A stretch of DNA of 22,129 nucleotides. Origin: a virus (lineage: Duplodnaviria > Heunggongvirae > Uroviricota > Caudoviricetes). The DNA lies in IMG/VR virus record IMGVR_UViG_2526164668_000016, positions 1 through 22,129 of that record; one strand, written 5' to 3'. The position numbers and the translations under genes were made by a program. The notes beneath the pieces were generated by a model. That model worked only from the letters and a program-made list of their open reading frames with translations. It searched no databases and was not told the DNA's origin. Positions 16,975 to 18,820 of this stretch are shown piece by piece (position 1 is the stretch's first letter; each line of letters begins with the position of its first letter).

Positions 16975-17016
16975 AAGACCTCTTATTGAGGGGGTAATTG
17001 AATCAGTTTAATGTGT

Positions 17017-17048
17017 GGGGAGTCGATTTATTCTCCCCATTTTATTTA
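17017..17048. terminator. hairpin plus T-run between convergent Q and lipoprotein genes
   Basis: GGGGAG-tcgatttatt-CTCCCC followed by ATTTTATTTAATTTATTT. Confidence 0.45.
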
Positions 17049-17054
17049 ATTTAT

Positions 17055-17501
17055 TTAAGGTTTTAATTCATCAAGACGTTGTTGGATAGTGTTTTTGCTT
17101 GCGTTGTCTGTTATAGACATTTGTTGTACTTGCCCCATTGCCATTTGAGTTTCCATCCACATATCGGCCCACACTTTTGTATCGTTATTAACTTGAGCGA
17201 TAGTAAATCTGACTTTTGATACCGGGGTTGTTGAATAGGCATTGCCGATTAACATTTGTCCAAAAACAGCAGAGCCGCCTTCCAGTTCTTTACCACATAT
17301 AACACTGCTGTTATCCGCGTTGTAAATTATCAACCCTCTACTATTGCAGTAATTCACAAGGGCATCTTTGACTTTATCTTTTGTCGTATTTTGATAAACC
17401 CCCTCAGGTTTTCCTGATTGAGTTTTCTTTATCAATGGTACGGAAGAAGTACAACCTGAAATGATAGTTGCGCTAAGTAATAGTACAGTCATTTTATTCA
17501 T
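17055..17501 (-). CDS. putative lipoprotein (148 aa), unknown function
   Basis: Signal peptide with lipobox-like LSATIISG|C; AT-rich; convergent to Q. Confidence 0.6.
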   Translation of the reverse strand: MNKMTVLLLSATIISGCTSSVPLIKKTQSGKPEGVYQNTTKDKVKDALVNYCNSRGLIIYNADNSSVICGKELEGGSAVFGQMLIGNAYSTTPVSKVRFTIAQVNNDTKVWADMWMETQMAMGQVQQMSITDNASKNTIQQRLDELKP

Positions 17502-17773
17502 GTTTCTTATCCATTGTTAAGGGCATACCCACACAATTATTTTTATTGGAGATGAATAATCAACCGTTTACAATCGTAAAAAATCAAATATGCTGTTAAG
17601 AGTGGTTACTTCGCCACACAACTTAAACCCGCCGCTGAGCGGTTTTTTTGTACCTGTAAACCTGGTGCAGTACAGTAAACACGCTGGTGGTCGTGAATAC
17701 TGGCTTTTTATCTTGCTGGCTTTTTAGACAAGAGTTATTGGTATGTCACGTTAACCGGAAAAGGGAAAAAGAC

Positions 17774-17971
17774 ATGCTGAAACAGCAGGATATGACCGAA
17801 ACCGCCAGAGTGGTGTTTAATGAATTAAGCGTTACCGAACCGGCGACAGTCGGGGAGGTTGCGCAGAATACTTACCTTTCACGCGAACGCTGCCAGTTAA
17901 TACTGACCCAGCTTGTTATGGCGGGTCTGGCAGACTATCAGTGCGGTTGTTACAGACGCCTTCAGTCCTGA
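17774..17971 (+). CDS. small winged-helix regulator, PapI/FaeA-like (tentative)
   Basis: 65 aa; …TVGEVAQNTYLSRERCQLILTQLVMAGLA… loosely resembles the PapI/FaeA family; ATG 17774 with AGGGAA RBS. Confidence 0.3.
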   Translation: MLKQQDMTETARVVFNELSVTEPATVGEVAQNTYLSRERCQLILTQLVMAGLADYQCGCYRRLQS

Positions 17972-17980
17972 AGGCTTTTT
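17958..17980 (+). terminator. intrinsic terminator (GCCTTCAG..CTGAAGGC plus T5) overlapping the stop of the small regulator
   Basis: 18-bp palindrome GCCTTCAGTCCTGAAGGC followed by TTTTT. Confidence 0.45.
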
Positions 17981-18106
17981 ATTTGTGGTGAATGGGCGGC
18001 TGGTGGGGGGGGCGACACCTGTCAGTCCTTTGCTTATGTGTTGATGATAATTTACCTTTTGGGGCTATAATTGAGCTAACCAATTGCTAATGAAAGTAAA
18101 ATTATA

Positions 18107-18820
18107 ATGGCTGTTGTCTGTTCAGTTATCATGGTTTGCTCCCCAATTAATATTTTTCTTGAAAAGGATACGTTGTCACTTAAGCCAGGCTCAGTTGTTC
18201 TGGCCACCAAATGCATCAGGGAGCTTTTCCTTATGCATTATGGCAAAGTTAAAATTGTCGATATAAGCGAATCCGTCGTAAGTCAATATCTGGAAAGTCA
18301 GCATAAGCTGACGAGGACTCGTCTGACTGACATTCCGCTTTACCTGTTGCTGGAACCCAACAATCCTGCGTTGGCTGCGGCTTTAATTACCAGCCAGGGA
18401 TTTTCCGGAGAGGCCACGGATATGTTTCTTATGATGGCCTGCCTGTCTCTGTTTGAAACAGATGAACGGATGTCATTGTTTTTAAGTGGATGTTTATCCA
18501 GCATAAGTGCCAAAGTCAGGGCGATAATTCAGACAGATATATCAGCAAGCTGGACGCTTGGTGCGATTGCTCTACAGTTGCATATGAGTGAGAGTTTGTT
18601 AAAGACAAAACTGAAAAATGAAGGGGGCATGTTCAGTCGCTTGTTGCTGGAAGAGCGGATGCGTGTTGCTGTAAATATGTTATGTTCCCGGCATGGATAT
18701 GGACAGGCTATAGCAGAAAAATGCGGTTATTCAAGCAGGTCCTACTTTATTTCTGTATTTCACCGCTATTATGGCTTCCCGCCAGACAGATATGTATCCA
18801 GGCAAGGGCTTGATTATTGA
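18107..18820 (+). CDS. AraC/XylS-family transcriptional regulator (GadX/YdeO/AppY-like prophage regulator)
   Basis: C-terminal dual-HTH AraC signature (…LLKTKLKNEGGMFSRLLLEERMRVAVNMLCSRHGYGQAIAEKCGYSSRSYFISVFHRYYGFPP…). Confidence 0.85.
   Translation: MAVVCSVIMVCSPINIFLEKDTLSLKPGSVVLATKCIRELFLMHYGKVKIVDISESVVSQYLESQHKLTRTRLTDIPLYLLLEPNNPALAAALITSQGFSGEATDMFLMMACLSLFETDERMSLFLSGCLSSISAKVRAIIQTDISASWTLGAIALQLHMSESLLKTKLKNEGGMFSRLLLEERMRVAVNMLCSRHGYGQAIAEKCGYSSRSYFISVFHRYYGFPPDRYVSRQGLDY

Follow-up and report, generated by a model that had tools for sequence, protein, structure and literature searches.

PsrA and PsrB of Escherichia coli O157:H7 are AraC/XylS-type regulators of 237 residues, with a published mutual identity of 90%. 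The psrA gene is ECs_1087 (PMC13502914), and reviews place psrB (z2104) in OI-57, at 1,849,324–1,929,825 (PMC8565820, PMC10877973). PsrB binds the hdeA and gadE promoters and increases acid resistance, and type III secretion is lowered via GadE/YhiF (PMC10877973); these functional statements on PsrA and PsrB were drawn from reviews. A second described system is M.EcoGII. This non-specific adenine methyltransferase stays silent in lysogens and does harm upon expression, and the enzyme of phage 1720a-02 has been described as very similar to it (PMC5778455). Here we analysed the virus record IMGVR_UViG_2526164668_000016 over its positions 1 to 22,129 (the window, 22,129 nucleotides), and within it the region 16975–18820 between the antiterminator gene Q and a tRNA cluster, which holds a lipoprotein gene, a gene for a small predicted winged-helix protein and a probable psrB allele.

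In our judgement this region probably opens the late transcription unit of a lambdoid E. coli prophage resembling Stx phages, being assembled from three modules and carrying an allele of PsrB; the open reading frames (ORFs), identities, module boundaries and synteny statistics behind this reading were observed directly. The gene order given by the ORF list, Pfam and ARAGORN is DUF968, Q, convergent lipoprotein, small ORF, AraC ORF, tRNAs, TerB-family, DUF3927 and NanS-like sialate esterase, and the three ORFs that an earlier note on this DNA had put between Q and the tRNAs were all recovered there. The regulator gene lies in the following cassette.

18008–18846, plus strand: psrB cassette, 839 bp, delimited by blastn breakpoints against prophage Sp9 of strain Sakai.
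18044–18071, plus strand: candidate psrB promoter within the cassette (ATGATA-16-TATAAT), predicted by a consensus scan (10/12), the best promoter-like match in the region.
18107–18820, plus strand: AraC/XylS regulator of 237 residues, probable PsrB allele (phrog_1450; HTH_AraC PF00165, E=2.4e-13; HTH_18 PF12833, E=5.8e-10).

The two Pfam matches of the AraC protein exceed the gathering scores and give it a C-terminal double helix-turn-helix. The protein aligns full length with the NCBIfam YdeO model (E=4e-31) and through its C-terminal half with the GadX model (E=1.2e-24), in agreement with the GadX/YdeO type assigned by the earlier note, but the scores of 108.5 and 87 bits are far under the equivalog cut-offs of 348 and 500, respectively. 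By these profiles the protein is a relative of YdeO and GadX rather than an equivalog of either. It shares its fold class with YdeO, GadX and PatE, which per the literature have the same target regulon, but it is only 35.7% identical to PatE (ECs_0287).

Compared with the copy at the psrB position of O157:H7 strain ATCC 43894, 234 of the 237 residues are identical (98.7%), the substitutions being A103V, H196Y and I202V. This copy, the best in that genome, is located at 1,906,697–1,907,410, within the OI-57 interval. The window protein is 90.7% identical (215/237) to Sakai PsrA in its 237-residue reading, and so is the ATCC 43894 copy. Since the latter lies inside OI-57 and its identity to PsrA fits the published 90%, it can be taken as PsrB. 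We conclude that the window gene is in all likelihood an allele of PsrB, a known regulator, the step from map position to gene name being a presumptive one. As such it would belong to the class of prophage AraC regulators that rewire acid resistance and virulence (PMC10877973), as had been suggested from the letters of the sequence.

A psr gene was found in 726 complete E. coli genomes out of 5426, the median copy number being two; O157:H7 genomes have it in two copies, at two places. The ORF in the window is intact and the identical protein occurs on at least 1000 public contigs, so that the pseudogene considered in the earlier note can be set aside. The window psrB sits in a lambdoid prophage late region just before ileZ/argN/argO, and psrA and psrB of O157 have the same position, after the small ORF and directly before these tRNA genes. 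The O157 order matches that of the window (Q, small ORF, AraC gene, ileZ/arg tRNAs, TerB, DUF3927, NanS), and Sakai Sp4 reads Q, CAAX protease, small ORF, ECs_1087, ileZ/argN/argO and NanS-like gene. The backbones are different, with a Q of the PF06530 type and a lipoprotein gene in the window and a DUF1133 Q in O157. Sakai Sp6 was considered as the OI-50 equivalent and rejected, being without the AraC gene; psrA is in Sp4. A 241-residue AraC homologue, 59% identical to the window PsrB, was seen 3′ of a methyltransferase gene, tRNAs and a 142-residue ORF (L112:5664-6389; L091:5573-6289). Psr-like regulators therefore occupy more than one slot of the late region.

Module boundaries were determined by blastn against reference prophages, and the region consists of three modules that are found separately in other prophages. 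Homology with Sp9 covers 17641–18007 and begins again at 18847, two bases 5′ of ileZ; the alternative filling in Sp9 is a 1210-bp methyltransferase cassette (L007:10867-12076), which the psrB cassette thus replaces. A prophage of the extraintestinal pathogenic E. coli (ExPEC) type, carrying Q, lipoprotein, small ORF, methyltransferase and holin genes, has 98% homology over 16501–17806, and so Q, the lipoprotein gene and the promoter region travel together. With Sp4, which has the same Q type and a CAAX protease instead of the lipoprotein, homology resumes exactly at 17567, the first hexamer of a PR′-like site. The lipoprotein gene is an insertion of ~560 bp in the interval between Q and the small ORF, which is normally 240 nt long. 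Other fillings of this slot between Q and the late promoter are a CAAX/Rce1-like protease (Sakai Sp4, L005:17238-18056), a GIY-YIG nuclease (phiP27 L22, L234:1208-2437) and a 138-residue ORF (mEp460_051, L235:1507-1923). The complete combination seen in the window was found in only 19 of the 5426 genomes.

The earlier note had described the region as a single AT-rich insertion of about 1.9 kb. The breakpoints do not bear out a single insertion. The AT-richness holds for the region overall, whose GC content of 41.9% compares with 52.1% for the 5 kb preceding it and 53.7% on the downstream side, but it is uneven: the lipoprotein gene (37.8%) and AraC gene (43.8%) account for the low value, and the small ORF stands at 51.5%.

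The head of the late operon comprises five features.

17567–17594, plus strand: candidate late promoter PR′ (TTTACA-16-TATGCT; consensus scan 9/12).
17631–17650, plus strand: tR′-like intrinsic terminator (GC hairpin and T7; terminator scan, fold z=−1.5).
17712–17746, plus strand: conserved DNA motif CTTGCTG-N12-AGAGTTAY-N2-GTRTG 5′ of the small ORF, from an alignment of 15 loci.
17774–17971, plus strand: small predicted winged-helix protein of 65 residues (phrog_331; phiP27 L23/mEp460_052 family), the first ORF after the probable PR′ and tR′.
17958–17985, plus strand: intrinsic terminator that overlaps the small-ORF stop codon (terminator scan; −10.5 kcal/mol, z=−3.7), kept in Sp4 and Sp9.

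The sequences at 17567–17594 and 17631–17650 are common to the window and Sp4, which have the same Q type, whereas Sp9, with another Q type, has a different sequence in the same architecture. We read site and hairpin as the putative PR′ and tR′, which co-vary with the Q type, as would be expected. Fourteen of the 15 aligned loci, which come from about ten genera, have a GC hairpin with a T-run at the equivalent place 5′ of the small ORF. A leader RNA of ~50 nt, roughly 17601–17650, would be made between the probable PR′ and tR′. Its place is that where Stx phages make StxS. Rfam gave no match over 17500–17780, and no identity is claimed with the prophage small RNA (sRNA) HnrS (EcOnc10-12 of Sp9, Sp10 and Sp12), the HnrS paper having no matchable sequence or coordinates. 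Downstream of tR′, the motif at 17712–17746 has TTG.TG, AGAG.TA and G.T invariant in 15/15 loci, and at least 90% of them retain the remainder; the loci range from E. coli to Xenorhabdus, Photorhabdus and Proteus, and their flanks vary. RNAalifold predicts no pairs 5′ of the small ORF. The motif is present in single copy in the window and fits no sigma-70 −10 element, and neither a dyad nor a direct repeat is obvious in it.

The small ORF is a real gene, as judged from a median ratio of nonsynonymous to synonymous substitution of 0.28 among 35 homologues, in which the third codon position is the most variable. Its conserved start is the ATG at 17774 and not the upstream GTG, and the 94- to 106-residue form in some database entries and in the PHROG profile was rejected, since homologues from many genera have an in-frame stop two codons 5′ of the ATG. 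The predicted recognition helix, RCQL(I/L)LTQ..AGL, is invariant in the family. A search of 1.84 billion representatives returned 88 clusters at 50% identity, of which 85 are small proteins of at most 114 residues; the other three, proteins of 835–1264 residues with several short matching stretches, were taken as spurious. No distant named relative was found in the same search. PGAP names the protein 'TrmB family transcriptional regulator' or 'hypothetical protein', and Pfam matches stay below threshold (TrmB in 13 of 22 members, DprA_WH in 11 of 22, also MarR_2), the best being E=6.3e-06 in one member. The AlphaFold2 model has three helices (pLDDT 67) and leaves the wing unmodelled; the top 50 Foldseek matches include ArsR, MarR, Zalpha and IclR winged helices, with probabilities of at most 0.85 and all E values above 0.4. 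The family members phiP27 L23 and mEp460_052 occupy the same place, after Q and a probable PR′, but precede a DNA methyltransferase gene, whereas the window ORF precedes psrB.

This methyltransferase is the usual neighbour. A scan for the small ORF in one genome per species (GTDB) gave 62 loci, in Escherichia, Salmonella, Klebsiella, Citrobacter, Kluyvera, Buttiauxella, Proteus, Mixta, Mangrovibacter, Xenorhabdus and Photorhabdus. In 52 of the 53 evaluable species loci, an intact small ORF lies 83–155 nt 5′ of a 350-residue beta-class N6_N4 DNA methyltransferase gene (PF01555). An IMG/VR search that started from the methyltransferase found the intact small ORF upstream in 73 of 74 evaluable loci. 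On the 5′ side stand three unrelated types of Q (PF06530, DUF1133 and PF03589), at a distance of 216–256 nt in 73 of 97 measurable loci. Starting from the AraC gene, again in IMG/VR, the small ORF was found ~95–300 nt upstream in 80/80 psr loci, with any Q type; the lipoprotein gene was present in only five of these 80. The core order of Q, small ORF and methyltransferase is common to Sakai Sp9 and the inducible phages phiP27 and mEp460; in phiP27 the genes run L21 (Q), L22, L23, L24 (methyltransferase), ileZ/argO and stx2e. The small ORF thus belongs to the phage backbone, at the head of the late operon, and its usual companion is the methyltransferase rather than psr or fimbrial genes.

From this constancy we infer that the small protein may work with, or control, the methyltransferase or the head of the late operon. 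As a possible and tentative reading, the 65-residue protein would be a dedicated partner of promiscuous adenine methyltransferases of the M.EcoGII type, which either times or limits the harmful enzyme or binds the motif at the head of the late operon. The small ORF is disrupted by frameshift or truncation in 11 of 80 psr-linked loci and in 1 of 126 methyltransferase-linked ones (Fisher p=1.6e-4, the copies not being independent), which hints that selection on it relaxes once the methyltransferase is lost. The enzyme is 94.3% identical to that of phage 1720a-02. Several points weigh against the dedicated-partner reading or against the promoter assignments. The place of the enzyme in the M.EcoGII group is indirect, an equation by transitivity through the wording of the M.EcoGII paper. 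The small ORF is intact in 69 of the 80 psr loci, which lack the methyltransferase, and may for this reason be independent of it. No fusion with the methyltransferase was found among the 88 clusters, and no known family supporting a link between the two proteins was seen in Pfam with 22 members. Finally, PR′, tR′ and the psrB promoter are putative elements, being consensus matches only, and the tR′ stem is short in the window.

A competing reading, doubtful as we hold it, makes the small protein a general regulator of the late-operon head that is independent of the methyltransferase and binds the motif, for example for autoregulation or read-through. The invariant recognition helix and the motif, kept across genera 28–62 nt 5′ of the start codon, would suit such a regulator; a DNA-level element is the likelier because no RNA structure is conserved, and the ORF is mostly intact even in loci without the methyltransferase. 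However, a single-copy motif with no obvious dyad or direct repeat is a poor fit to it, and it leaves the near-perfect association with the methyltransferase without explanation.

The C proteins of restriction–modification systems, which are known as proteins of the Xre helix-turn-helix type, offer a comparison for the dedicated-partner reading. Like them, the small protein is putatively DNA-binding, and its gene stands directly upstream of one for DNA modification. Unlike them, it is a predicted winged helix, its partner is an orphan methyltransferase of a phage late operon, and a terminator stands between the two genes. Pfam found no HTH_3 match in the window protein or in the 22 members, and the conserved upstream motif has no obvious dyad and does not match a C-box operator.

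Between Q and the probable late promoter lies the lipoprotein gene with its signals.

17017–17045, either strand: hairpin and T-run where Q and the lipoprotein gene converge, probably acting as a bidirectional terminator (terminator scan; −13.0 kcal/mol, z=−3.1).
17055–17501, minus strand: lipoprotein gene, precursor of 148 residues with a lipobox (phrog_3152), cargo between Q and the probable late promoter.
17536–17563, minus strand: candidate promoter of the lipoprotein gene (TTGATT-16-AATAAT), predicted by a consensus scan (9/12).

The convergent lipoprotein described in the earlier note is well founded, in that a minus-strand ORF of 148 residues opposes Q and carries the lipobox ISGC at residues 14–17, with Cys17 and a Thr at position +2. 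The lipobox cysteine is invariant in 19 homologues, whereas Pfam LPAM_1 reaches only E=0.22. The family has 30 invariant columns and two further conserved cysteines, and relatives with 50–72% identity occur in Salmonella, Citrobacter, Enterobacter, Xenorhabdus, Morganella and others. The gene is present in 185 of the 5426 genomes, and the Q protein of the window is identical to WP_001204819.1 of other prophages that carry it. Convergent cargo beside Q has precedents in lambdoid prophages, nmpC in DLP12 and lc in PA-2. With these, and with Bor, Cor and Llp, the window gene has in common a host-envelope product encoded beside Q against late transcription, but no relation in sequence or fold.

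The lipoprotein likely acts at the envelope of the lysogenic cell. A more specific proposal, and an unlikely one, is that the prophage expresses it, like Cor, Llp and Bor, to exclude superinfection or to mask receptors. By the Lol sorting rule, the lack of Asp at +2 suggests the outer membrane; the gene is placed as cargo, has a candidate promoter and a terminator to itself, opposes late transcription and is kept in prophages of several genera, all of which would suit such a factor. On the other side, the protein was seen to resemble Cor, Llp or Bor neither in sequence nor in fold, the best folds were generic helix-grip or KA1-like, and BFVD gave no meaningful match. A PADLOC search for defence systems with the lipoprotein, PsrB and the CAAX protease gave no significant match.

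Returning to the small protein, it is very unlikely that it forms a functional pair with PsrB, as co-regulator or antagonist, in one travelling regulatory cassette. The occurrence of the small ORF upstream of psr in all 80 loci, intact in 69, is what speaks for such a pair. However, 52 of 53 species-level loci pair the small ORF with the methyltransferase and none with psr, the homology breakpoint at 18007/18008 and a terminator separate the two genes, and the small ORF is broken in 11 of the 80 psr loci, including Sakai Sp4, where the disrupted copy (L005:18343-18582) stands beside a functional psrA.

The earlier note had further likened the small protein to the fimbrial regulators PapI and FaeA and raised cross-regulation of a K88-like operon that lacked its own upstream regulators in the window. 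When classified with hidden Markov models, none of 22 family members matches PF04703 at E≤1, whereas PapI as positive control (a sequence identical to PDB 2HTJ over residues 5–77) does so with E=6.5e-32. An hhalign comparison of the family with PapI gives 14.5% probability at 16% identity, 2HTJ was not recovered at E≤10 by the family profile against all PDB sequences, and it is outside the Foldseek top 50 for the model of the small protein. Membership of PapI/FaeA was excluded on these four tests. PapI is a stand-alone small winged helix and the small protein a predicted one, and by these comparisons the likeness is that of any small winged helix; family-level similarity is lacking, the genomic context is another one and there is no PapB-type partner.

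The composition of the window bears on the fimbrial operon. The window is E. coli DNA. Its positions 6466–21358 match, at 99.9% identity, a lambdoid prophage on the chromosome of the bovine strain OkiPb01716, and 1–6466, spanning the fae-like operon, ISEc16 and IS1A, are 99.7–99.9% identical to plasmid pOkiPb01716_1. Where the IS1 copy ends (~6466), plasmid-like sequence gives way to chromosome-like sequence, and the window is a composite, either a cointegrate mediated by insertion sequences or an assembly chimera. The integrase arm of the prophage is absent from the window. K88-type subunits are encoded at 194–3479 and the window begins inside the operon, so the apparent want of upstream regulators is an artefact of where it starts. 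On pOkiPb01716_1 the same operon (99.9% identity) has a PapB-family regulator (L233:3215-3430) and a divergent AraC/GyrI-like regulator (L233:4179-5105) upstream, and the annotation of the 9 kb covered there includes no gene of the PapI/FaeA type. The co-location of operon and prophage is doubtful, as the two meet at the IS1 end in the window and the closest complete genome has the operon on a plasmid and the prophage on the chromosome. Be the window a cointegrate or a chimera, their co-location carries no weight for cross-regulation, which is unsupported.

That the small protein is a PapI/FaeA-type switch cross-regulating the neighbouring K88-like operon is therefore barely credible: the similar sizes of the two winged helices (~65–77 residues), an hhalign alignment in register over 44 columns and the presence of the operon in the window are outweighed by the failure of all four homology tests, by constant neighbours, Q and methyltransferase, in 126 loci of many genera without fimbrial genes, and by a plasmid-borne operon that has regulators of its own across an IS1-end junction. 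In 206 of 206 loci, the small gene lies between Q and psrB or the methyltransferase; it never heads a fimbrial operon.

The neighbouring features on both sides of the region are as follows.

15596–16591: DUF968 protein (ORF list and Pfam).
16594–16974, plus strand: Q antiterminator, 126 residues, QuuD/PF06530 type (Pfam PF06530, E=2.1e-51).
18849–18924, plus strand: ileZ-type tRNA with anticodon CAT (tRNA-Met (CAT) by ARAGORN, tRNA-Ile (ileZ) in PGAP and the Sakai annotation; Rfam tRNA, 72.5 bits).
18926–19007, plus strand: degenerate argN remnant ('tRNA-OTHER' by PGAP in the 99.9%-identical OkiPb01716 record; no call by ARAGORN).
19021–19097, plus strand: argO-type tRNA-Arg (TCT), by ARAGORN and Rfam.

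An intact argN, tRNA-Arg(TCG), is found at the equivalent place in other prophages. Between the DUF3927 and NanS-like genes there are two Rfam matches above the gathering scores, STnc100 at 19867–20060 on the plus strand (142.7 bits) and the anti-GcvB sRNA AgvB at 20062–20123 on the minus strand (88.7 bits).

Taken as the head of a late operon, the region would probably work in the following way. After Q, the bidirectional terminator and the convergent lipoprotein gene with its candidate promoter would fill a variable cargo slot, which separates Q from its cognate late promoter and elsewhere holds a CAAX protease, a GIY-YIG nuclease or nothing. Next would come the probable PR′, a short leader and the tR′-like terminator, followed by the 65-residue winged-helix gene as the first ORF of the late operon, with its own terminator; in the window this gene would be a retained backbone gene without its usual methyltransferase partner. 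The 839-bp cassette with its candidate promoter would supplant the methyltransferase cassette and encode the PsrB allele. PsrB, as known for PsrA/PsrB, would be made in the lysogen, bind the gadE and hdeA promoters and turn on the GAD acid-resistance regulon and, via GadE, would repress type III secretion of the enterocyte effacement locus (LEE) where the LEE is present. By analogy with these published proteins, PsrB is presumably active in the source strain.

The finding is largely known in kind: the main gene would be an allele of the published PsrB at its standard position, and the bovine-type prophage adds nothing new in kind. It is of use for annotation, since the 'helix-turn-helix domain-containing protein' in 726 of 5426 complete genomes can be labelled psrB-like, and the comparison defines the cargo slots at the late-operon head of Stx-like phages. 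The lipoprotein and the conserved winged-helix gene with its upstream motif are modestly interesting, since in many prophages of pathogens, and in many phages of medical relevance, this one small conserved gene stands between Q and stx, psr or methyltransferase genes. If the small protein is indeed a dedicated partner of the methyltransferase, its gene would stand first, almost universally, on the Q-dependent late transcript of prophages of Enterobacterales, including Stx phages, and the copy in psr prophages would be a leftover that is starting to decay.

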